A stretch of 64,000 nucleotides of DNA from Escherichia coli (lineage in GTDB: Bacteria > Pseudomonadota > Gammaproteobacteria > Enterobacterales > Enterobacteriaceae), in assembly GCF_029227855.1 (NCBI RefSeq), contig NZ_CP074356.1; one strand, written 5' to 3'. Numbering within the stretch: the stretch's first letter is position 1; every line of letters starts with the position of its first letter. Position numbers and translations under genes: made by a program. This document shows, one piece after another, positions 4,086 to 61,704 of this stretch. The notes beneath the pieces are model-generated. The model saw nothing but the letters and a program-made list of their open reading frames with translations, was not told where the DNA came from and ran no database searches.

Positions 4086-5497
4086 TGCGCGCTCCTTTTT
4101 CGCCGCGAAATAGCTACATTTTGATGCGTATCGTTCGGCACTCTGGCAAAGATGAACGCCGGAAGGGCGATGATAAACGCCATGCTAAACCAGGTGTACA
4201 TAAAGACGGTTTGTGTGGTGCCGCTGTCGACGCTGACATGCTGCGAACCAAAAAGCCCCAGCAACAGCCCGGCGATGGTGACGCCGATACTCATCGACAA
4301 TTGCATAATCATCGACAGCAGGCTGTTTCCGCTGCTCGCCAGATTGTCCGGGAGATCTTTCAGCGTCAGGGTGTTCATGGAGGAGAAACGGGTCGAGTTG
4401 ACCATCCCTTGTAAAAACAGGACGAACGGCAAAACGTAGTACCAGCCCAGCAGAGCAGTGGTCATAAACAACAGGGTGACCAGCGACAGACCCAGCGTGG
4501 TCGCCACCAGTACCCGACGGTAGCCAAAGCGATTCACCACCTGTACCATAATTCGCTTCATTCCCATGCTGCCAAGCACCATCGGGATCATCATCAGTCC
4601 GGCATGAAACGGTGAGAAGCCAAGGCCAATTTGCAGGAAAACCGGTGTCATAAAGGGCAACATGCCACTGCCAATACGTCCGGCAAAGCTCCCCGCCAGG
4701 CCCAGCGAAAAGGTACGAGTGCGGAACAGTTTCAGACTGAACAGGGCGCGGTTGTTATTTCTGGCGTGCAGCAGATAAAGCACCAGTGCCACCACGCCAA
4801 CTGCGACCAGGCCAGCAATCGCCAGCGGCGATAAACCTGTACCTTTACTGCCGTCCAGTGCCAGGGTTAATACCGCCATGCCAACCGCCAGCAATAAAAA
4901 GCCGGAAAGATCAAAGCGCCGCGTCTGCATGGTGTAGTTCGGCATTAACATCAGTGTGGCGATCGCGCCAATAATCCCCACCGGAATGTTGATCAAAAAG
5001 ATCCAGTGCCACGACGCGTATTCCACCAGCAGACCGCCGAGCGCCGGACCGAGCAGCGGACCGACCTGACCGGGTAACGTGACAAAGGTCATCGCCGCCA
5101 TATATTGCTCGCGCGGTACGATTTTCATCACCGTCAACCTGCCGACCGGCACCATCATCGCGCCGCCAACGCCCTGTAACGCGCGTGCCAGCAACAGTTC
5201 GTTCAGCGTGCCGGAAAGCGCGCAAAACAGTGAACCGAGAGTAAACAGCACGATGGCGGTAAAGAAAATATTGCGCACGCCGACTTTGTCCGCCAGCCAG
5301 CCGCTGGCGGGCAGCATCACCGCCACGGTCAGTACATAAGAGACAATGACCATGTGCATATGCAACGGACTTTCCCCGAGGCTTTGCGCCATTGAGGGAA
5401 GCGCGGTGTTAACGATGGTGGTGTCCAGCGACTGCATAAAGAAGCCGAAAGCCACAATCCACAATTGCCAGCGGGTGCTGTCGGGAAGATCTGTCAT
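4082..5497 (-). CDS. mdtD: MFS transporter MdtD
   Basis: 471 aa polytopic membrane protein with MFS-type repeats; sits in the mdtABCD-baeSR operon with a 4-nt overlap with baeS. Confidence 0.95.
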
Positions 5498-8400
5498 TTA
5501 CTCGGTTACCGTTTGTTTAGGTTTACGCGAAAAACGCAGCCGCAGACGGTCGAAAAAGAGATACACCACCGGCGTGGTATACAGCGTCAGAAGCTGGCTC
5601 ATTACCAGACCGCCGACAATGGTGATCCCCAGGGGTTGGCGCAGCTCCGAGCCGTCACCGCCCGACAATACCAGCGGCAGCGCGCCAAACAGCGCCGCCA
5701 GGGTAGTCATCATAATCGGGCGAAAACGCAGCAGACAGGCCTGGAAAATAGCTTCCTGCGGCGTCAGGTTACCGTGCCGTTGGGCTTCAAGCGCAAAATC
5801 GACCATCATAATGGCGTTTTTCTTCACGATGCCGATTAATAGCATGATCCCTATCAGGGCGATTAGGCTGAACGGGGCATTGAACAGCTCCAGCGCCAAC
5901 AGCGCTCCAACGCCCGCCGAGGGCAGGGTGGAGAGAATCGTCAGCGGATGTACGTAACTCTCGTAAAGGATACCCAGCACGATATACACCGTGGCGATGG
6001 CGGCGATAATCAGGATCACCTGCGAGTTCATCGTCTCCTGGAACACCTGCGCCGTGCCGGCAAAACTACCGCGCACCGTCGAAGGCACACCAAGCTGGGT
6101 CATTGCGCGATCGATCGCCGCACTGGCGTCCGAGAGCGATTTCCCGGTCGGCAGGTTAAACGAAATGGTCGAGGCCGCCGATAATCCCTGATGATTCACC
6201 GACAGCGGAGCATTCGCCGGTTGCCATTTAGCGAAATACGACAGCGGGATCGCTTTTCCTTCGTTATTGATAACGAACATTTTTTCCAGCGCGCTGATGT
6301 CCTGGGTATAGCGCGGATCCACTTCCATCACCACTTTGTACTGGTTCATCGGCTGGTAAATGGTCGAGATTTGCCGCTGACCGAAGGCGTTATTTAACAG
6401 GCTGTTGGCGGCCTGCACGTCGATTCCCAGCCGCGCCATGGTGTCGCGGTCGTAAACCAGATTCATCTCCGCGCCGTTATCCTGCTGATCGGAGTTCACG
6501 TCCGCCAGTTCCGGCAACGTTGCCAGTTTTTTGCGGATTTTCGGCTCCCATTCGCGCAGTGCCGCCAGGTCGTCGGATAACAACGTGTACTGGTAACTGG
6601 CGTTCGACTGACGTCCGCCAACGCGAATATCCTGTACCGCCATCAGGAACAGATTCGCCCCCGGTTCTTTCGCCAGTTTTACGCGCAGACGGTCGATAAT
6701 TTGCTGCGCCGTTTCGCTGCGTTCGTCGCGTGGCTTGAGGGTGATAAACATCATCCCACTGTTCACCCGCGAACCGCCGGTAAAGCCGGTGACATTATCC
6801 ACCGCCGGATCGTCACGGATAATTTTCATAAAATCCTGCAACTTACCGCGCATCGCCTGAAACGAAATACTCTGATCCGCCTGTATCCCGCCCATCAACA
6901 CGCCGGTGTCCTGCTCCGGGAAGAAGGTTTTCGGGATCGAGATATATAGCCAGATATTCAGCGCAATGGTGCCAAGCAGCACCACGCCCACCAGACGGGT
7001 ATGATTGAGCACCCATTTCAGCGACTTGCCATAGCCTTGTTGCAGGGCTACCAACATGCGACCAAAACCACGCAGTCGCTTTTGCTCGCGCGGCTTGCTG
7101 GCTTTTAGCATCCAGCCGCACATCATCGGCGTTAGCGTCAGGGAAACCAGCAACGAAATACCAATGGCGACAGAAAGCGTCACGGCAAACTCGCGTAACA
7201 GTCTGCCCGGCAATCCGCCCATCAACAGCAGCGGCAGAAACACCGCCACCAGTGACAGACTCATCGACAGCACCGTAAAACCGACTTCGCGAGTACCTTG
7301 CAGTGCGGCCTGTAGTGGTTTTATCCCCGCTTCCAGGTGACGGGCAATGTTTTCCAGCACCACGATGGCGTCATCCACCACGAAACCAGTAGCAATAGTG
7401 AGCGCCATTAACGACAGGTTATTGAGACTGAATCCGCACAGGTACATCGCCGCAAACGTACCAATCAGCGAAACCGGCACCGCAACGGCGGGAATAATAG
7501 TGGCGCGACCCGAGCGCAGGAATAAAAACACCACCAGAATCACCAGCGCCACCGAGATAATCAGCGTTTGCTCGACTTCTTCCAGCGAGGCGCGAATGGT
7601 GGGGGAGCGATCCTGGGCAATTTGCAGATCAATCGCCGCCGGAATGGTCTCCTGCAACTCCGGTAATTTTGCCCGGATGCTGTCAACCGTCTGGATTATA
7701 TTGGCTTCCGGCAGCTTGCGGATCATCAGCAAAATAGCCGGTTTGGCGTTGGTCATCCCGGCGTTACGTACATCTTGTACAGAGTCGGTCACCGTCGCCA
7801 CATCGCCCAGACGAACCGCGCCGCCGTTGTTGTAATGAATAATCAACGGCTGATATTCAGCGGCGGTTTTCAGTTCATCGTTAGTCTGGATCTGCCAGCG
7901 GTGAGTATCATCTTCCAGCGCCCCCTGCGGTTTACGCACGTTGGCATTGCTGATGGCGGTGCGCACATCGTCCAGCGACACGCCCTGATTAAACAGCGCC
8001 TGCGGATTCAGCCCGACGCGTACGGCGGGCAGCGAGCTGCCGCCAACATCGACATCACCGACACCGTCGATTTGCGAAATCGTCGGAGCCAACTGCGTCG
8101 AGGCGAAATCGTACAGTTCACCCTGCGAATAAGTATCGGACGTCAGCGTCAGGATCATTATTGGCGCATCCGACGGGTTCGCTTTGCGATAGGTCGGACG
8201 GCTGGGCATCCCGCTAGGCAGCAAACTTTGTGCGGCGTTGATCGCCGCTTGCACATCGCGCGCTGCGCCGTTGATATCGCGGTCAAAATCAAACTGCAAA
8301 ATAATGCGCGTGCTGCCGAGCGAACTGCTGGAGGTCATTTCACTGACCCCGGCAATGCGCCCAAGCGAACGTTCCAGCGGCGTGGCAACGGAAGACGCCA

Positions 8401-29044: not shown

Positions 29045-29083
29045 CAGTGTATTGGTAGCTAAAAAGCCAGGGGCGGTAGCGTG
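29045..29083 (+). promoter_or_regulatory. JUMPstart element with ops (GGCGGTAGCGTG, RfaH recruitment) in the colanic acid operon leader
   Basis: CAGTGTATTGGTAGCTAAAAAGCCAGGGGCGGTAGCGTG matches the 39-bp JUMPstart consensus; ops core at 29072..29083, about 180 bp upstream of wza. Confidence 0.7.
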
Positions 29084-51832: not shown

Positions 51833-52006
51833 ATTTGCGACCATTCCTGGAAAAATGGAGCCATACTTAGGAACAATGCTACTGCAATCCACAACGAAGC
51901 GGCGTAACATTACAAGTAATTCAGTAATCAATTCAGGGTAATTGATGCTGGCGAAAAAAATCGAACAAGCTATAATTCAGCAACCATTTTACAGGTGGAT
52001 GAAATA

Positions 52007-52900
52007 ATGACGAATTTAAAAGCAGTTATTCCTGTAGCGGGTCTTGGGATGCATATGTTGCCTGCCACTAAGGCGATTCCCAAAGAGATGCTACCCATCG
52101 TCGACAAGCCAATGATTCAGTACATTGTTGACGAGATTGTGGCTGCAGGGATCAAAGAAATCCTCCTGGTAACTCACGCGTCCAAGAACGCGGTCGAAAA
52201 CCACTTCGACACCTCTTATGAATTAGAATCTCTCCTTGAGCAGCGCGTGAAGCGTCAACTGCTTGCGGAAGTGCAGTCCATCTGTCCTCCGGGCGTGACC
52301 ATTATGAACGTGCGTCAGGGCGAACCTTTAGGTTTAGGCCACTCCATTTTATGTGCACGACCTGCTATTGGTGACAACCCATTTGTCGTGGTGCTGCCAG
52401 ACGTTGTGATCGACGACGCGAGTGCCGACCCGCTGCGTTACAACCTTGCTGCCATGATTGCGCGCTTCAACGAAACGGGCCGCAGCCAGGTGCTGGCAAA
52501 ACGTATGCCGGGTGACCTCTCTGAATACTCTGTCATCCAGACCAAAGAGCCGCTGGACCGTGAAGGTAAGGTCAGCCGCATTGTTGAATTTATCGAAAAA
52601 CCAGATCAGCCGCAGACGCTGGACTCAGACATCATGGCCGTTGGCCGCTATGTGCTTTCTGCCGATATTTGGCCGGAGCTAGAACGCACTCAGCCTGGTG
52701 CATGGGGACGTATCCAACTGACAGATGCTATTGCCGAACTGGCGAAAAAACAGTCCGTTGAAGCCATGCTGATGACCGGCGACAGTTACGACTGCGGTAA
52801 AAAAATGGGTTATATGCAAGCGTTCGTGAAGTATGGACTACGCAACCTGAAAGAAGGGGCGAAGTTCCGTAAAGGGATTGAGAAGCTGTTAAGCGAATAA
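52007..52900 (+). CDS. galF: UTP-glucose-1-phosphate uridylyltransferase-like regulatory subunit GalF
   Basis: 297 aa from ATG at 52007 ([30 protein letters not shown]). Confidence 0.95.
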
Positions 52901-53157
52901 TGAAAATCTAACCGAATGTAACGGTTGATAAGAAAATTGTAACGGCAGTGAGGATTCGTGGCGAAAGTAATTGTTGCGAATATTCCTGCCGTTGTTTTAT
53001 ATAAACAATCAGAATAACAACGAGTTAGCAATAGGATTTTAGTCAAAGTTTTCCAGGATTTTCCTTGTTTCCAGAGCGGATTGGTAAGACAATTAGCGTT
53101 TGAATTTTTCGGGTTTAGCGCGAGTGGGTAACGCTCGTCACATCGTAGACATGCATG

Positions 53158-53196
53158 CAGTACTCTGGTAGCTGTAAAGCCAGGGGCGGTAGCGTG
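53158..53196 (+). promoter_or_regulatory. JUMPstart element with ops (GGCGGTAGCGTG) upstream of the O-antigen cluster
   Basis: CAGTACTCTGGTAGCTGTAAAGCCAGGGGCGGTAGCGTG, 39 bp; ops core at 53185..53196, about 100 bp upstream of the first O-antigen gene. Confidence 0.75.
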
Positions 53197-53297
53197 TCTA
53201 GTTCAATCCGAGTAAATTAAAAATAATAGTTTTGGAAAAATTGTCTTTATAATGTTAACAAAGCAAGAGTAGGTAATACATATCGTTTTGACATGTA

Positions 53298-54362
53298 TTG
53301 CACTTAAAGAAAACATATCAATTAAATTATCATACTATGCTTATTTACAATACAATATTTGTCTTTTTATCATTTCTTGCACTTTTAGATTTAAGTCATA
53401 AAAAAAATTTGTTATTTTTTTTATTTCCTTGTTTTATATTACTACTGTTAACTGCTATTCGTGGTAATGGAGGAGATGATTTTTATGTGTATGAAAAATA
53501 TTTTAACGCTCTTCCTAATGAAATTTTTAACTATGGATATGGTTATTATAGTTTAAATATGTTTGTTAAAAATTTTGGAGAGTATCCTTTTTTTATTATC
53601 ATTTCATCAATAATATGCATAACTCTTCAGGCAATTTTTATTTATCGTGAGACTGAAAAACCAACTCTGGTTTTGTTTTTATTTTATTCAACTAGCTTTT
53701 TATGGTTGGATTTTATTTTAATTAGGCAGTCAATTTCCGTTGGTTTTTTTATTTTGGCAATATCATTTTTCAAAAATAATAAAAAAATTTTTGCCTGTCT
53801 GTTTTTGATTCTATCTTCATTATTTCATGAGACCGCTATTTTTGCTGGAGTAGTTTTTTATATTTTATACAGAGCCGAGAAGGCAGGTTTTCTTTTTACA
53901 ATTGGCTCGGTATTAATTATTGCACCATTTTTATCTGATATAATCACTATCATAAATGATATGACGATAAAAAATAATAATATAACTCTCTATCTGGAGC
54001 AGCGTACCTTACCAAGCATTGCAAATGTAATTGAGTTAACAATAGCATTTGTTGCATTTTATATAATTAATAAAAATTCCGTGTTTAGAGAGAGTAATGA
54101 GTATAAAATATATAAAAGTATACTATATTCTTCACTATGCATACTATTATTGTCTTATACAATCCCATCATTGGCTAGATTCCTAGAATTTTTTCGTTTT
54201 TTTTACTTCATTTTAGTAGTTAGAATGCTAATGCAATTTAATGTGAGAAGTAGATATCTTTTTTTTGTAATTATACTAGCGTACTGTTTTATGAGACTTA
54301 ATAGCTTCATAAATCAATTTGATTCTGGTTTTGATTATATTTATAATGGAAAAATACTGTGA
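53298..54362 (+). CDS. wzy: Polytopic membrane protein, candidate O-antigen polymerase Wzy (EpsG-like)
   Basis: 354 aa, very hydrophobic with multiple predicted TM segments, AT-rich codon usage; first gene after galF. Assignment as Wzy rather than Wzx is a judgement from size and composition only. Confidence 0.5.
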   Translation: MHLKKTYQLNYHTMLIYNTIFVFLSFLALLDLSHKKNLLFFLFPCFILLLLTAIRGNGGDDFYVYEKYFNALPNEIFNYGYGYYSLNMFVKNFGEYPFFIIISSIICITLQAIFIYRETEKPTLVLFLFYSTSFLWLDFILIRQSISVGFFILAISFFKNNKKIFACLFLILSSLFHETAIFAGVVFYILYRAEKAGFLFTIGSVLIIAPFLSDIITIINDMTIKNNNITLYLEQRTLPSIANVIELTIAFVAFYIINKNSVFRESNEYKIYKSILYSSLCILLLSYTIPSLARFLEFFRFFYFILVVRMLMQFNVRSRYLFFVIILAYCFMRLNSFINQFDSGFDYIYNGKIL

Positions 54363-55228
54363 CTATATTATTTTCTGTTATTACTCCTACCTATAATAGG
54401 GCAGATGAGTTAAGCTCATTGTTCAAAAGTCTTAATAATCAAGAGGGTATCGAATTCGAATGGGTGATAATTGATGATGGTTCTGAAGATCATACACAAC
54501 AACAAGTTAATGACTTCAAAAAACATAATAAAAACATCACAGATATAAAATATTTTTATCAAGAGAATAAAGGTAAAAATTCTGCTGTAATTAGAGGGAT
54601 TCAGAATGCTTCCGGCGATTATATTGTGGTGATTGATAGCGATGATTATTTATTGGATGATGCTTTAATAAGAGTAAAAAATATATTAGATGAAGAGAGT
54701 GTTAATGGCGATGATAAAATAATTGGCATTTCAGGTGTTAAAGTTAAAAGTGATTTCACACCTGTAAGTTATATTAGCAACTCTTCGGCATTGCGAATGA
54801 GTCATTATGAGTGGTTTTATAAGTTTCAGCGGTTAGGTGATCGGATTGACTTTTATAAAGCCCGAGTGCTTAAAGAGAAAATATTTAATGCATTTCCAAA
54901 GGAAAAGTTTATTACAGAAGACGCATATTGGTTGGACCTCGTTGGGGAAAAAATTTTCATAAATGAACCGTTATTAGTAATAAAATATTTAGAGGGAGGG
55001 CTTAGTTCAAGTTACTCATTACTCCTGCGAAACAGTCCTTTTGGAACATCATATTATTATTATATTCTATTAATTAATGCTGATAATTTTAAAACAAAAC
55101 TTAAAGCATCATTATTGATGATGTACTATATATTTGTTACCATATTAAAAAATAGTAATATAGTAATTGGGTTATTGTCACTCATGTTATTTCCAATCTT
55201 ATGTATAATAAAATTCTTTCGAAGCTAA
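54359..55228 (+). CDS. Glycosyltransferase family 2
   Basis: 289 aa; MTILFSVITPTYNRADEL...WVIIDDGSEDHT (GT2 DXD region). Confidence 0.8.
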   Translation: MTILFSVITPTYNRADELSSLFKSLNNQEGIEFEWVIIDDGSEDHTQQQVNDFKKHNKNITDIKYFYQENKGKNSAVIRGIQNASGDYIVVIDSDDYLLDDALIRVKNILDEESVNGDDKIIGISGVKVKSDFTPVSYISNSSALRMSHYEWFYKFQRLGDRIDFYKARVLKEKIFNAFPKEKFITEDAYWLDLVGEKIFINEPLLVIKYLEGGLSSSYSLLLRNSPFGTSYYYYILLINADNFKTKLKASLLMMYYIFVTILKNSNIVIGLLSLMLFPILCIIKFFRS

Positions 55229-56406
55229 GAAACACTATTCTTCCTTGTTTCACTCTAGGAACGTCGACGATTTTTTTCTTTGCGATAGGTTTCTTCTTTG
55301 GTATAAATGAAAAATCTGATTTTATATTATTTACGATTACTTTACTTTCAACCATTGGAACTATTCTTCAAATTTCTTGGTATGGATTGTTACCTCGTTT
55401 GAGTTCGAGTTCAAGCTTAAAATTTTTAGGTTATATTATTTCTAATGGTTTTATCTACTGTTTGATCATAAATACCCTACCATTTGTGATTTTAACTCTG
55501 AACTTTACAAACTTTTTTTTTGCAGGGTGTCTCTACTCTTTATTTTTCCAACTGCATCAGTATCTTAAGAATGTTTTTGTTTATCTTGGGCGGCTTAAAG
55601 CATTTTATATTTTTGATGCCATCGGCTATGCCATATGTGTTATAAGTATTACTGTGTTCCAAAAATATCTATTACATTCAAACCCTCAGGATTTATTTGT
55701 TCTGCTTTCGTTATGTTGGCTTTTAATAGTAATTGGTGAGGTCGTACATCTTAAACTATATATTAATTATGACATATCTGTAAAGCCTGTTTATGTATGT
55801 ATTATTCCAACATGGAAAACAAGGATTGCAAACAGTGGTTTTATTGTGAAAGATCTTTTAACTGCGTATGCGCTTAATATACTTGCGCCGGTAGGCGGTT
55901 TAACTATATATTCATACGCAAGTAAGATTTCAACAGCTGTTTTTCAATTATTCTCTCAATATAAAGTAAATGCTTGGGTGGGCAGCATAAGAAAAAAAAG
56001 GTTAAGTGAAGTAGAATACGGTGATATAAAAAAAGTGTCATTATCTTCTTCAATTGATTTTTGTATTTTTCAGATCGTTGCATGGCTTTGTATCTTACCT
56101 ATTATATTATATAATGGCACAAATATAAATATTGAATGGTATGTATTAAGTATTATTACTGGTGGATTACTATACTTGATACAATCAATGGAACAGCCTT
56201 ATGCTAGATTTATTTATATGTCACGACATTTTACCGATATTGCCATCGCAGATGGAATAAATTTTATTATTTATATGGTTTTCTTTTCATATGGATTGTT
56301 AATGTTAAATGTATATTATCTATTTTTAGGTATTATATTAGCTCAATTATGTTCACTAGTTACTTATTCTTTATTTTGCAAGAGGTTGTTTAGGAATGAT
56401 ACCTAA
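55201..56406 (+). CDS. wzx: Polytopic membrane protein, candidate O-antigen flippase Wzx
   Basis: 401 aa with about 10-12 hydrophobic segments; the ORF overlaps the upstream GT2 gene by 28 nt, so the true start is uncertain. Confidence 0.5.
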   Translation: MYNKILSKLRNTILPCFTLGTSTIFFFAIGFFFGINEKSDFILFTITLLSTIGTILQISWYGLLPRLSSSSSLKFLGYIISNGFIYCLIINTLPFVILTLNFTNFFFAGCLYSLFFQLHQYLKNVFVYLGRLKAFYIFDAIGYAICVISITVFQKYLLHSNPQDLFVLLSLCWLLIVIGEVVHLKLYINYDISVKPVYVCIIPTWKTRIANSGFIVKDLLTAYALNILAPVGGLTIYSYASKISTAVFQLFSQYKVNAWVGSIRKKRLSEVEYGDIKKVSLSSSIDFCIFQIVAWLCILPIILYNGTNINIEWYVLSIITGGLLYLIQSMEQPYARFIYMSRHFTDIAIADGINFIIYMVFFSYGLLMLNVYYLFLGIILAQLCSLVTYSLFCKRLFRNDT

Positions 56407-57052
56407 AATAATACATTACTGTTGGTTCGGGGGCGGGGATAAACCTGCTTTAGTTAAAAAATGTATGGGGACATGGGAAAAAGTCTTGCCTGGTTGGGAT
56501 ATTATTGAATGGAACGAAGATAATTCGCCAGTATCAGTTCCTTATGTAAAAAATGCGTTAGAAGATAAACGATATGCATTTGCTGCTGATTATGTAAGAT
56601 TCTATGCGCTAAAAACCATGGGAGGAGTTTATCTTGATACTGATATGGAATTGATCAAAGATATTTCTCCGCTTTTGAATAATAAATTCTTTACAGCGAA
56701 AGAATCAGAGGAGCTTATTAATGCAGCAATAATGGGGAGTGAAAAAGATGGGAGATTTGTCAATTTAGTAATCCAAGAATTACAATTGCGCACAGGACAT
56801 ACTTACGAATCTATACCAAAAATACTTACTGATATATTTAATACAGGAAATGGATTTAAAGATGAAACAACCATTTATGATAAGGAATATTTTTATCCTT
56901 ATAATCCCTTTGATAATAAACGAAATGAAGTTAAACAACTTTTCTATTGTGATATAACTCCTCATACTTATGCCATTCATCACTGGCAACAAAGTTGGCA
57001 CTATACATTTCTTGAACGGGTTATTAACAGAATAAGGATGCTTATAAAGTGA
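56396..57052 (+). CDS. Glycosyltransferase (sugar-transferase DXD family, GT32-like)
   Basis: 218 aa; MIPKIIHYCWFGGG...YLDTDMELIKD, typical of the Gly_transf_sug family. Confidence 0.7.
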   Translation: MIPKIIHYCWFGGGDKPALVKKCMGTWEKVLPGWDIIEWNEDNSPVSVPYVKNALEDKRYAFAADYVRFYALKTMGGVYLDTDMELIKDISPLLNNKFFTAKESEELINAAIMGSEKDGRFVNLVIQELQLRTGHTYESIPKILTDIFNTGNGFKDETTIYDKEYFYPYNPFDNKRNEVKQLFYCDITPHTYAIHHWQQSWHYTFLERVINRIRMLIK

Positions 57053-57819
57053 GTGGAAATAAATTAATAAGCATAATTATGGCATCAAATAAAATAGATG
57101 AGTTTCTACCTCTGGCAATAAACTCAATTCTTGAACAAACATATCAAAATATCGAAGTGATTTTTGTTGCTAATGGTGATAAAGCTCACTGTATTAGTTT
57201 GTATATAAAAAATTTTTTTAAAGATGAGCGAATCAAAATTTATGAAACACCAATAGGCCAACTATCACATGCGCTTAACCTCGCTATTTCTAACGCATCG
57301 GGTGATTATATTGCCCGCATGGATGCTGATGACATTAGTTTACCTGAGCGATTAACTAAACAGTTGGAATATTTAAGGTCACATAATTTAGATATGGTAG
57401 GTTCGGATATAATTCACATAGATACAAATGGAGAAGTTATTGGGATTAAACATTATCCCAAAGGGTTAAATAAAATTAACAAACAATTGTATTTTAGGAA
57501 TACTTTTTCGCATAGCACTATACTAATCAAAAAAAAAATACTCATTTCAGCGAGAGGCTACAATGCTGGATTTAATTCAGAGGACTATGATCTCTGGTTA
57601 AGATTAAGACGGAAGAATATCAAATGGGATAATATGGAGGAATGCCTCTTAAAATATCGTATACATAGTGCATCTACACAAAGGAAGAGATTGGGTTACG
57701 CCGAAGTCGCGGGTTATTCTCTACGTGAATTTTTATTACGTTTCTCATTTATTGGTATTTTTTCTGTTTTAATTCATATTGTTAAAGTTTATATTAAATC
57801 ATCTTCTCATGAAGAATGA
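57049..57819 (+). CDS. Glycosyltransferase family 2
   Basis: 256 aa; ISIIMASNKIDEFLPLAINSILEQTYQNIEVIFV...DADD. Confidence 0.8.
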   Translation: MSGNKLISIIMASNKIDEFLPLAINSILEQTYQNIEVIFVANGDKAHCISLYIKNFFKDERIKIYETPIGQLSHALNLAISNASGDYIARMDADDISLPERLTKQLEYLRSHNLDMVGSDIIHIDTNGEVIGIKHYPKGLNKINKQLYFRNTFSHSTILIKKKILISARGYNAGFNSEDYDLWLRLRRKNIKWDNMEECLLKYRIHSASTQRKRLGYAEVAGYSLREFLLRFSFIGIFSVLIHIVKVYIKSSSHEE

Positions 57820-58010
57820 TTTATATTTTAGGATAATTAACTATTTAAATTAGAATCATTTGAGCAAACTTAGGTAACTCTATATAATACACAGCATTGC
57901 AAATGAGTAACATATTGGAATAGCCATTCAATGGTAATATTACAAATTGCTTTAATAATAATGGATCATTTAGCTATGGTGCAATATTTTCTTCTTGCGG
58001 AATTTTACCC

Positions 58011-59129
58011 ATGAAAATACTTCTAATAGGAAACCTCTCTGATACTATTGTATTATTCAGAGAGAAGTTAATAAGAGAGTTGATTAAAAAAAATATCACG
58101 GTTTATACATTAACGATGGATTCTAATCAAGAAAACTTCAACATCATTGCCAGCTACGGGGCCAAACCTGATTCATACTCTTTTTCTCGTTCAGGTACAA
58201 ATCCTTTTTCTGATATTTGGGATACATACAAATTAAATAAAAAAATAAAAAAAATAAAACCTGACGTTGTTCTTTCTTTTTTTCCAAAACCTGTTATTTA
58301 TGGTTCTTTAGCTGCTAAAATAGCAGGGGTGAAAAAAATATTTAGTCTCTTGGAAGGACTTGGTTTTTGCTATACGAATAATTCTAGTCCAATTAGTCTC
58401 AAAAGGAAGATATTAAAATGTATACAAACAATGCTATACAGAATTAGCTTGCCATTATGTAATAAAGTTTTTTTCTTAAACAAGGATGATTTTAATGATC
58501 TCATTATTGATAATAAAATAACCATAAAGAATTATGAAATAATTGGTGGAATTGGTGTTAATTTAGAAGAGTACAGTTATAAGCAACCAAAGATTGATAA
58601 AATACATTTTGGGATGGTTTCGCGATTACTAGTCGAGAAAGGTATTCGCGAATTTGTTTTGGCCGCGAGCCAGGTGAAAAAAAAATTTCCTGAGGTCGAA
58701 TTTAGTATTGCTGGCGCAATTGATGATAATCCTGGTGGTATAACCGAAGATGAGATAAAAAAATGGGAATCAGAGGGGGTTGTCAAATTTTTAGGTCAAG
58801 TTTCTAATGTTAAAAGTTATTTATCTAATATCTCTGTTTTCGTTTTGCCATCTTACCGAGAAGGCGTACCAAGAAGTACTCAAGAAGCGATGGCTATTGG
58901 GCTTCCAATAATTACAACTAATGTTCCTGGTTGTCGTGATACAATTATCAATATGGTAAATGGAATCATGATCCCACCATTTGATATTCAGTCTCTAGCG
59001 GACGCAATGGTATTTTTTATACAAAACCCTCAGAGTATAACAATAATGGGTAGAGAAAGTAGAATAATTGCAGAGAAAAAGTTTAATGAAATAGAAGCCG
59101 CGAATAAATTACTTAAATTAATAATCTAA
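58011..59129 (+). CDS. Glycosyltransferase family 4 (GT-B, retaining)
   Basis: 372 aa; C-terminal EX7E-type region PSYREGVPRSTQEAMAIGLPIITTNVPG. Confidence 0.8.
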   Translation: MKILLIGNLSDTIVLFREKLIRELIKKNITVYTLTMDSNQENFNIIASYGAKPDSYSFSRSGTNPFSDIWDTYKLNKKIKKIKPDVVLSFFPKPVIYGSLAAKIAGVKKIFSLLEGLGFCYTNNSSPISLKRKILKCIQTMLYRISLPLCNKVFFLNKDDFNDLIIDNKITIKNYEIIGGIGVNLEEYSYKQPKIDKIHFGMVSRLLVEKGIREFVLAASQVKKKFPEVEFSIAGAIDDNPGGITEDEIKKWESEGVVKFLGQVSNVKSYLSNISVFVLPSYREGVPRSTQEAMAIGLPIITTNVPGCRDTIINMVNGIMIPPFDIQSLADAMVFFIQNPQSITIMGRESRIIAEKKFNEIEAANKLLKLII

Positions 59130-59159
59130 TATATAGATTAACATCTACCGGAGTGTTTT

Positions 59160-60179
59160 ATGGCTATTCTTGTTACTGGCGGAGTTGGTTATATCGCTTC
59201 GCACACTATTATAACTTTACTAGAAAAAGGTGAAGAAGTTATAATACTTGATAATTTATCAAATTCATTCTACGAATCTTTGCATAAAGTTAAAAAAATT
59301 ACCGGGTATGATAGTCGATTTTATAGAGGTGATATACTTGACAAAGAGCTCTTACGCAAAATATTCAAAGAAAACACTATTTCTGACGTAATTCATTTTG
59401 CAGGCTATAAATCTGTAAAAGAATCCATTTCTCACCCATTGAAATACTATCAAAATAACGTTTCTGGTACATTGTCATTAATAGATGCGATGGGGGAGGC
59501 TTGTGTAAAAAGTTTGATTTTTAGCTCATCAGCTACAGTATATGGTGAACCAGAAAGAATACCTTTAGATGAAAATTGCAGAATTGGAGGTACAACGAAT
59601 CCATACGGCACGTCCAAGTTATTCGTAGAAAAATTCCTTATTGATTATTCACATGCATTCCCTGATTTTAGAACTACCATCTTAAGATATTTCAACCCTG
59701 TCGGTGCTCATCCATCTGGTGAAATAGGGGAAGATCCCAATGGTATACCTAACAACTTAATGCCATATATATGTCAAGTTGCTATAGGGAAGCAACAACA
59801 CCTCACTATCTTTGGTAGCGATTATCCAACAAAAGATGGTACAGGTGTTCGTGATTATATCCATGTCATGGATCTTGCTGAAGGGCATGTTGCAGCGTTA
59901 GAACATCGAAATGAAGGAGCAAATTGCAAGATCTATAATCTCGGGACGGGCACAGGATACTCAGTACTGGAACTTGTTGATGCATTTCAAAGAGTTACTG
60001 CACGTAAAGTTCCATATGTATTCAGTAAACGACGACCTGGTGATATTGCTGAGTGTTGGTCTGATCCTTCTAAGGCTTATAGGGAACTTGGATGGAAAGC
60101 GAAGCGTGGGTTGGAAGAAATGGTTCGAGATGCCTGGAATTGGCAACAAAAGAATCCGAACGGTTATATAAAAGCATGA
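59160..60179 (+). CDS. gne: NAD-dependent UDP-hexose 4-epimerase (GalE/Gne family)
   Basis: 339 aa; Rossmann motif VTGGVGYIASH and catalytic YGTSK; UDP-GlcNAc versus UDP-Glc specificity cannot be told from sequence alone. Confidence 0.8.
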   Translation: MAILVTGGVGYIASHTIITLLEKGEEVIILDNLSNSFYESLHKVKKITGYDSRFYRGDILDKELLRKIFKENTISDVIHFAGYKSVKESISHPLKYYQNNVSGTLSLIDAMGEACVKSLIFSSSATVYGEPERIPLDENCRIGGTTNPYGTSKLFVEKFLIDYSHAFPDFRTTILRYFNPVGAHPSGEIGEDPNGIPNNLMPYICQVAIGKQQHLTIFGSDYPTKDGTGVRDYIHVMDLAEGHVAALEHRNEGANCKIYNLGTGTGYSVLELVDAFQRVTARKVPYVFSKRRPGDIAECWSDPSKAYRELGWKAKRGLEEMVRDAWNWQQKNPNGYIKA

Positions 60180-60297
60180 ATGCTCAATGGTATTTTTGTC
60201 AATCTTAAAAATTATCGATTTTATGTATCCTGAGTTAACATAGCATCTACATTGACCTGAGTTATGTTTCGCAGTATCACCCTGACAGGAGTAAACA

Positions 60298-61704
60298 ATG
60301 TCAAAGCAACAGATCGGCGTAGTCGGTATGGCAGTGATGGGGCGCAACCTTGCGCTCAACATCGAAAGCCGTGGTTATACCGTCTCTATTTTCAACCGTT
60401 CCCGTGAGAAGACGGAAGAAGTGATTGCCGAAAATCCAGGCAAGAAACTGGTTCCTTACTATACGGTGAAAGAGTTTGTTGAATCTCTGGAAACGCCTCG
60501 TCGCATCCTGTTAATGGTGAAAGCAGGTGCAGGCACGGATGCTGCTATTGATTCCCTCAAGCCGTACCTCGATAAAGGTGACATCATCATTGATGGTGGT
60601 AACACCTTCTTCCAGGACACCATTCGTCGTAACCGTGAGCTTTCTTCAGAAGGCTTTAACTTCATCGGTACCGGTGTCTCCGGTGGTGAAGAAGGTGCGC
60701 TGAAAGGTCCTTCCATTATGCCTGGTGGGCAGAAAGAAGCCTATGAACTGGTAGCGCCGATCCTGACCAAAATCGCCGCAGTAGCTGAAGACGGAGAGCC
60801 ATGCGTTACCTATATTGGTGCCGATGGTGCAGGTCACTATGTGAAGATGGTTCACAACGGTATTGAATACGGTGATATGCAACTGATTGCTGAAGCCTAT
60901 TCTCTCCTGAAAGGCGGCCTGAATCTCTCTAACGAAGAACTGGCACAGACCTTTACCGAGTGGAATAACGGTGAACTGAGTAGCTATCTGATCGACATCA
61001 CCAAAGATATCTTCACCAAAAAAGATGAAGACGGTAACTACCTGGTTGATGTGATCCTGGATGAAGCAGCAAACAAAGGTACGGGCAAATGGACCAGCCA
61101 GAGCGCGCTGGATCTCGGCGAACCACTGTCTCTGATTACCGAGTCTGTGTTTGCACGTTATATCTCTTCTCTGAAAGATCAGCGCGTTGCCGCATCTAAA
61201 GTTCTTTCTGGTCCGCAAGCGCAGCCGGCAGGCGACAAAGCTGAGTTCATTGAAAAAGTTCGCCGTGCGCTGTATCTGGGCAAAATCGTTTCTTACGCTC
61301 AGGGCTTTTCTCAGCTACGCGCCGCGTCTGAAGAGTACAATTGGGATCTGAACTACGGCGAAATCGCGAAGATTTTCCGTGCTGGTTGCATCATCCGTGC
61401 GCAGTTCCTGCAGAAAATCACCGATGCATATTCCGAAAACCCGCAGATCGCTAACCTGCTGCTGGCTCCGTACTTCAAGCAAATTGCCGATGACTACCAG
61501 CAGGCGCTGCGTGATGTCGTTGCTTATGCGGTACAGAACGGTATCCCGGTTCCGACCTTCGCCGCTGCGGTTGCCTATTATGACAGCTACCGTGCTGCTG
61601 TTCTGCCTGCGAATCTGATCCAGGCTCAGCGTGACTATTTTGGTGCGCATACTTATAAGCGCATTGATAAAGAAGGTGTGTTCCATACTGAATGGCTGGA
61701 TTAA
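60298..61704 (+). CDS. gnd: 6-phosphogluconate dehydrogenase, decarboxylating
   Basis: 468 aa; [27 protein letters not shown]; GC content abruptly higher than the upstream O-antigen genes. Confidence 0.95.

Follow-up and report, generated by a model that had tools for sequence, protein, structure and literature searches.

Large intergenic regions in O-antigen gene clusters have been described in Yersinia pseudotuberculosis, where they mark genes that were replaced and where the genes of long-standing modules have their start codons next to the preceding stop codon (Kenyon, Cunneen and Reeves 2017, PMC5399914). The O23 cluster of Escherichia coli resembles those clusters in that tightly packed modules meet at a large intergenic region. 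However, the gaps in Yersinia are read as recent, derived forms, whereas the gap in O23 is old and occurs in three genera, in clusters whose proteins share only 55-81% identity with those of O23. Both the O23 cluster itself and the interpretation of such a gap as a junction are already known. What is added here is that a gap of this kind can be old.

The window (the whole stretch of 64,000 nucleotides of E. coli DNA that was analysed, from contig NZ_CP074356.1 of assembly GCF_029227855.1) holds, judged by its sequence, the known and published E. coli O23 O-antigen gene cluster of the Wzx/Wzy-dependent type, because 18 complete E. coli genomes match the cluster region with 99.9% identity and because wzy and wzx are named "O23 family" by NCBI in the three records examined. 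We found no difference in gene order from the E. coli O23 cluster, and the gap is present in all 21 carrier genomes. The cluster lies between galF and gnd and consists of wzy, GT2, wzx, GT32, GT2, the gap, GT4 and gne, in this order. The features of the region are as follows:

51995-52900, galF, left flank of the cluster
53158-53196, plus strand, JUMPstart element with ops, upstream of the first O-antigen gene (Rfam RF01707, 60 bits, E 3.2e-12)
53185-53196, plus strand, ops site GGCGGTAGCGTG, exact match
53298-54362, plus strand, wzy, O23-family O-antigen polymerase of the EpsG family (start placed at 53337 by NCBI)
54359-55228, plus strand, gt2a, GT2 glycosyltransferase (Pfam, NCBI annotation)
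55201-56406, plus strand, wzx, O23-family flippase of 401 aa (NCBI annotation)
56396-57052, plus strand, GT32 glycosyltransferase with DXD sugar-binding region (Pfam, NCBI annotation)
57049-57819, plus strand, gt2b, GT2 glycosyltransferase, last gene of the left block (PF00535)
57820-58010, no strand, the gap, a non-coding spacer of 191 bp with 26.7% GC and few C (25 of 191)
57860-57888, plus strand, sigma-70-like site TTGAGC-17-TATAAT, 10 of 12 matches, 122 nt upstream of the GT4 ATG
57997-58002, plus strand, weak Shine-Dalgarno-like GCGGAA with its GGA core 9 nt before the GT4 ATG
58011-59129, plus strand, PglA-like GT4 glycosyltransferase, first gene of the shared right module (PF00534/PF13477)
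59160-60179, plus strand, gne, galE-type UDP-hexose 4-epimerase, second gene of the shared module (sequence matches)
60298-61704, gnd, right flank of the cluster

For Wzx there was no Pfam match at E <= 0.001. The JUMPstart element with its exact ops site suggests that the O-antigen operon is RfaH-dependent, and in this respect the O23 cluster is like other long polysaccharide operons under RfaH/ops control. A second exact copy of GGCGGTAGCGTG is located at 29072-29083 of the window and presumably belongs to the JUMPstart of the colanic acid cluster. In E. coli 13TMH22, a urinary isolate, the wzzB gene downstream of the O23 cluster is truncated by an insertion of the IS1203 family (locus L001, 11866-13001).

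There is also a variant lineage of O23, about 2-3% diverged, that comprises three pig ETEC strains and one metagenome contig. In this variant the gap measures 183 bp as the result of a 9-bp deletion and a 1-bp insertion. The metagenome contig (L006, UQVR01000036.1) has a length of 7,224 bp, is filed under "uncultured Tenericutes bacterium UMGS686" and carries an intact O23-variant cluster with all seven genes open and proteins that are 97-99% identical to those of E. coli; this contig most likely comes from E. coli and was misbinned. The variant clusters of the ETEC strains are degraded. In ETEC1720 (NZ_CP122859.1; locus L002, 3282-7719) and two other Belgian pig ETEC strains, an IS1 element has taken the place of wzy and the first GT2 gene, wzx is truncated and frameshifted, and the GT4 gene is split into fragments. 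These three strains probably do not produce an O antigen.

The initial annotation of this DNA had described a gap of about 190 bp between the GT2 and GT4 genes of an otherwise tightly packed cluster. The separation is indeed 191 bp, since the GT2 gene ends with the TGA at 57817-57819 and the first possible start of the GT4 gene after an in-frame stop is the ATG at 58011. The description of the other junctions is also essentially right: in order, they amount to -4, -28, -11, -4 and, from GT4 to gne, +30 bp, which leaves the gap as the one clear outlier by size; the distance from gne to gnd is +118 bp. Misplaced gene boundaries were considered as a source of the gap and ruled out, as the GT2 protein is full length (256 aa, compared with 245-257 aa in its family), the GT4 protein aligns from its first methionine with fifteen relatives, and the in-frame stop lies upstream of the GT4 start. 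No gene is placed in the gap by the NCBI annotation in the three annotated O23 records of the 21 complete carriers. The gap was also said to be AT-rich. With 26.7% GC this is true, but it is not distinctive, because GC content across the whole O-antigen cluster ranges from 22 to 38% and the gap matches the third-codon-position GC of the neighbouring genes (24-26%). This composition should be what is expected of unconstrained sequence in the O23 cluster. The gap is a single-copy sequence in each genome and was detected only in the 21 O23 genomes among 5,426 E. coli genomes, with no DNA match elsewhere among them. Taken for itself, it is a real yet ordinary non-coding spacer in a known cluster.

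The O23 arrangement recurs in Citrobacter sedlakii and in Salmonella enterica subsp. houtenae and subsp. arizonae, where the identity of 55-81% to O23 extends over all seven genes. The junctions in the four collinear clusters are -4, -28, -11 or -4, -4, the gap, and 26-30 bp, and the gap at the GT2/GT4 junction is 191 bp long in O23, followed by 251, 253 and 278 bp in C. sedlakii, S. houtenae and S. arizonae, respectively. The spacing is not identical in the related clusters; it varies from 183 to 278 bp. A large gap at the same junction in four collinear clusters of three genera is more than chance. The relationships among E. coli, C. sedlakii, S. houtenae and S. arizonae come out identically with each of the seven genes. 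Given this agreement and a gap common to the collinear clusters, the O23 joint is old: these comparisons place the gap in the common ancestor of the four clusters and the joint before their divergence. The cluster of S. houtenae contains an additional acyltransferase gene (PF01757) between gne and gnd, separated from them by gaps of 823 and 571 bp (locus L088, 10176-12675). It looks like a later insertion and possibly serves O-acetylation.

Outside the collinear clusters, the parts on the two sides of the gap are found apart from each other. The right part, GT4 and gne, is present in E. coli O103, where the GT4 WbtG and the epimerase GalE share 61% and 70% of their amino acids with the O23 proteins and the pair adjoins gnd. 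The DNA of O23 and O103 is homologous from base 1 of the GT4 gene as far as base 2158 of 2169, where the match stops within 11 bases of the gne stop codon; upstream of the GT4 start codon no homology to O103 was found. The gap together with its flanks matches only O23 genomes. In O103, too, the homologous GT4 and epimerase genes by gnd are preceded by an AT-rich gap of similar size (185 bp). However, the gene upstream of it is wbtF, encoding a PglJ-like GT4, and not a GT2 gene, and the sequences of the two gaps are unrelated (z = -0.9). In Acinetobacter, Psychrobacter, Pseudomonas, Yersinia and others, the gene before this GT4 is usually WbtF-like and overlaps or nearly touches it; tight coupling (-4 to +3 bp) of the GT4 to a WbtF-like GT4 was found in seven other taxa. 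The junction of wbtF and GT4 is equally tight (-4 to +3) in the O103-type clusters of Pseudescherichia vulneris, Enterobacter bugandensis, Yersinia intermedia and Rahnella. Because the wbtF-wbtG junction is tight in six other taxa with this pair, four of them with O103-type clusters, the O103 gap is a derived state. The pair of a PglJ-like and a PglA-like GT4 as such is conserved across Acinetobacter, Psychrobacter, Pseudomonas, Yersinia, Franconibacter and others, with a junction of -14 to +3 bp (loci L007 to L085, at about 4900-7100). In the O103-type cluster of Yersinia intermedia, which resides at a locus other than galF-gnd, GT4 and gne are themselves 449 bp apart (locus L095, 7134-7584), and a large spacer is thus present inside the shared module.

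In Escherichia albertii, a GT2 with 43% identity to that of O23 is followed by a gap of 140 bp, GT4 and gne. The left part is present without the right one in Citrobacter portucalensis, where gt2a, wzx, GT32 and gt2b have 61%, 49%, 67% and 64% identity to their O23 counterparts and gt2b is followed by a gap of 315 bp, a GT4 with only 26% amino acid identity to the O23 GT4, no gne, and gnd. This cluster has an IS1 element after galF, and no wzy was called in the approximately 1 kb before its first GT2 gene (locus L099, 1608-8181). Morganella and Providencia have the GT2 (63-65% identity) elsewhere in the chromosome, with yet other GT4s 23-25 bp downstream.

Phylogenetic trees also differ across the joint for O103, Franconibacter and E. 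albertii and agree in the four O23-type clusters. By neighbour-joining, with moderate bootstrap values throughout (70-92%), the WbtF tree groups O103 with Franconibacter (92%) and Franconibacter is joined by E. albertii instead in the trees of GT4 (70%) and gne (84%). Since both blocks occur elsewhere apart from each other and the trees of O103, Franconibacter and E. albertii disagree, the gap, as far as sequence comparison can tell, sits on the boundary of two independently assorting blocks. A seam between two horizontally acquired blocks had been proposed for this position, and the comparisons support it in the sense of a module boundary, but not of a recent joint. Among the four O23-type clusters there is no phylogenetic incongruence across the gap, so that the module argument rests on the other clusters. 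A compositional seam was rejected because there is no break at the gap, with a GC content of 0.32 on both sides and a GC3 of 0.24 for gt2b versus 0.25 for GT4. Neither a gene remnant nor a remnant of a mobile element was detected at the joint (chance-level matches in tblastn and no IS-like match). In O23 itself, no recent joining event is visible from the sequence.

The sequence of the gap behaves as that of a neutral spacer. Between O23 and its variant the identity of the gap is 96.2%, compared with 97.3 and 96.2% at the third codon positions of the flanking genes, with 10 indel columns. The corresponding values are 64.3% versus 73.7 and 72.9%, with 49 indel columns, for S. houtenae and S. 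arizonae, and 47.1% versus 47.7 and 49.1%, with 64 indel columns, for O23 and C. sedlakii. By this measure the gap evolves no more slowly than synonymous sites, with frequent indels, and no purifying selection on its sequence was detectable in the three pairs compared. Beyond close relatives the gaps cannot be aligned, as global and local scores equal those of shuffled sequences, with z < 1.5 for most pairs. The exception is the pair of Salmonella gaps (z = 13.6). One further comparison, of the O103 gap (locus L004, 8816-9000) with that of C. portucalensis (locus L099, 6763-7077), gave a local score of 20 (z = 3.8) that was reached by 0 of 300 shuffles; this is probably chance among 21 comparisons. 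Multiple and pairwise alignments revealed no conserved motif across the gaps beyond the ribosome-binding region, and the ribosome-binding motif is the only element of the gap that has a counterpart in related gaps. The same TGCGGAATTT is found as a Shine-Dalgarno-like motif in the gap of C. sedlakii, and the gaps of Salmonella, O103 and E. albertii have GGGA, AAGG or GGGG motifs before the ATG. The GGA/GGG motifs in the related gaps lie about 9-15 nt upstream of the GT4 start.

Considering all this, we regard it as likely that the gap is a neutrally drifting spacer that was left at the old junction of two modules of the O23 operon. The left module would be the serogroup-specific wzy-GT2-wzx-GT32-GT2 and the right module the PglA-like GT4 with gne, which many O-antigen clusters appear to share next to gnd. 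Within the modules, tight or overlapping genes would allow translational coupling. At the joint no such fit would ever have been built, and the spacer would have remained.

Such a spacer has to be crossed by transcription. RNA polymerase that has picked up RfaH at an ops site resists Rho-dependent polarity. In the O23 cluster, transcription would start upstream of the JUMPstart element with ops at 53158-53196 and read through the gap. Of intrinsic terminators (a GC-rich hairpin with a T run) we found two sites in 52800-60400 and none in the gap, and the gap is unlikely to act as a Rho loading site, which it does not resemble because it is poor in C (25 C of 191). With a polymerase carrying RfaH and a C-poor, terminator-free gap, we infer that the 191 untranslated nucleotides would cost little; the action of RfaH known from such operons, if it extends across the O23 gap, would explain why the untranslated stretch is tolerated. 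For GT4, ribosomes would then have to initiate anew at the weak ribosome-binding site of this gene, with GGA 9 nt before the ATG.

The initial annotation had also raised an internal promoter in the gap. A functional sigma-70 promoter that is kept by selection and drives GT4 and gne independently of the JUMPstart promoter would explain why the spacer persists at the GT2/GT4 junction of all four collinear clusters, and AT-rich DNA readily produces promoters, often with some activity. TTGAGC-17-TATAAT is the only sigma-70-like site on the coding strand of the gap, it matches at 10 of 12 positions, and both E. coli O23 lineages, the variant included, retain its perfect TATAAT (57883-57888). However, in the intact cluster of the O23 variant the 9-bp deletion lies between the hexamers and breaks the spacing of the site. 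Promoter-like sites are not enriched either: the region contains 39 of them and 41.8 +/- 5.8 are expected from shuffles. When the same rule for promoter-like sites was applied to the gaps of the six clusters with a homologous GT4 and gne, four coding-strand sites were found in 1,298 bp, that is 0.62 per 200 bp, compared with 0.41-0.78 per 200 bp in the coding sequence of the same clusters. At least one promoter-like site is present in four of the six related gaps, but both Salmonella gaps lack a sigma-70-like site, and the four sites lie at distances between 18 and 122 nt from the ATG and cannot be aligned to one another, so that the E. coli O23 site has no aligned counterpart in the other gaps. 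A promoter under selection is also difficult to reconcile with the lack of detectable purifying selection on the gap and with the seven relatives that have the same GT4 without any gap. The proposed promoter thus found no support, being a site at background density that is not conserved outside E. coli O23. A literature search on internal promoters of O-antigen clusters and on the gap itself yielded nothing specific. Being at chance level, the motif evidence from the sequence neither supports nor excludes a promoter, and weak promoter activity in the gap is possible, given that the TATAAT is kept in both O23 lineages. A functional promoter that selection maintains is, in our estimation, unlikely.

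An origin of the gap by gene decay was also considered. According to this explanation a gene that once lay between GT2 and GT4, or the end of one of the genes beside the gap, would have decayed and left the gap as its remnant; one candidate is the WbtF-like GT4 that usually precedes this GT4. Such a gene directly precedes GT4 in most relatives, gap lengths of 140-315 bp are compatible with leftover fragments, and other O-antigen clusters are known to have gene remnants at their junctions (PMC5399914). Nevertheless, a permissive tblastn search with 1,981 ORF products from all fetched loci against six gaps gave chance-level matches with a best E of 0.001 per query, and none in the O23 gap came from a member of the WbtF or gt2b families, although an old remnant would escape this detection, as the gap is saturated (47% identity between O23 and C. 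sedlakii). It also speaks against decay that the GT2 is full length and the GT4 aligned from residue 1, and the gap has no DNA match elsewhere in 5,426 E. coli genomes. A decayed gene is therefore, in our opinion, quite an improbable source of the gap.

The persistence of the gap might also be taken as evidence for selection on the spacer rather than on its sequence. All six enterobacterial galF-gnd clusters in which gt2b precedes a GT4 have gaps of 140-315 bp, and at the O23-type junction the gap has remained, at 183-278 bp, while the proteins diverged by about 30-45%. A neutral scar would be expected to shrink, and the persistence could mean that there is some selection for a spacer. Selection would then keep the spacer while its sequence drifts, for instance as a promoter that depends on composition only, as an uncoupling buffer or as a neutral landing zone. 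An uncoupling buffer would separate the translation of the shared module from that of the serogroup-specific genes, and a neutral landing zone would let the module swap between O-antigen clusters without harm to either neighbour. If true, a selected spacer would explain the gaps of 140-315 bp in all six clusters, which would be of modest interest. We consider selection of this kind rather improbable.

It is very improbable indeed that a small protein, or a small or structured RNA, is encoded here: an ORF of 27 codons (57931-58014) does exist, with a stop that overlaps the GT4 start (ATGA) as is typical of translational coupling, but it is restricted to E. coli O23 (none of the five further related gaps that were examined has an equivalent), carries one synonymous and three non-synonymous changes relative to the O23 variant and is of a length that we calculated to be free of stops by chance in about 9% of cases per frame at the composition of the gap, and an RNA is opposed by the absence of an Rfam match and a fold z of +0.8. 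Within 52800-60400 the JUMPstart element was the sole Rfam match, and the RNA fold of the gap is no more stable than that of shuffles, 164 of 200 of which fold as well. A structured RNA or riboswitch was rejected on these results. Two other candidates were dismissed, namely a repeated or mobile element, as the gap is single-copy, restricted to O23 genomes and without an IS-like match, and inverted repeats, as those in the gap are short and of the kind that AT-rich DNA gives by chance.

According to a review, the O23 antigen contains one GlcNAc and one GalNAc, with GlcNAc taken as the initiating sugar because gne is present in the cluster (PMC7685785). The GT4 protein matches the structure of PglA (8DQD) over its full length (E 2.1e-30, residues 13-369 of 372), and for WbtF the best match among named transferases is PglJ (E 3.7e-29); the scores stay far below the equivalog cut-offs of NCBIfam, none of which is reached. 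The arrangement is similar to that of PglJ and PglA in the N-linked protein glycosylation of Campylobacter, in that a full-length match to PglA, a PglJ-like WbtF and an adjoining gne are found. However, the acceptor is Und-PP-diNAcBac in Campylobacter and would be Und-PP-GlcNAc in O23. The right module plausibly makes UDP-GalNAc and adds an alpha-1,3-linked GalNAc to Und-PP-GlcNAc, because gne is adjacent and because O23 has one GalNAc and has GlcNAc first. A common reducing-end disaccharide would explain why different clusters share the module of GT4 and gne.

The gap on its own is of little importance. What it illustrates is that a junction gap can last much longer than an interpretation as a recent replacement would suggest, here across three genera. 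The PglA-like GT4 and gne behave as a portable 3' module next to gnd. Such a module may help to predict the reducing-end disaccharide of uncharacterised O antigens and to place recombination breakpoints in the evolution of serogroups.
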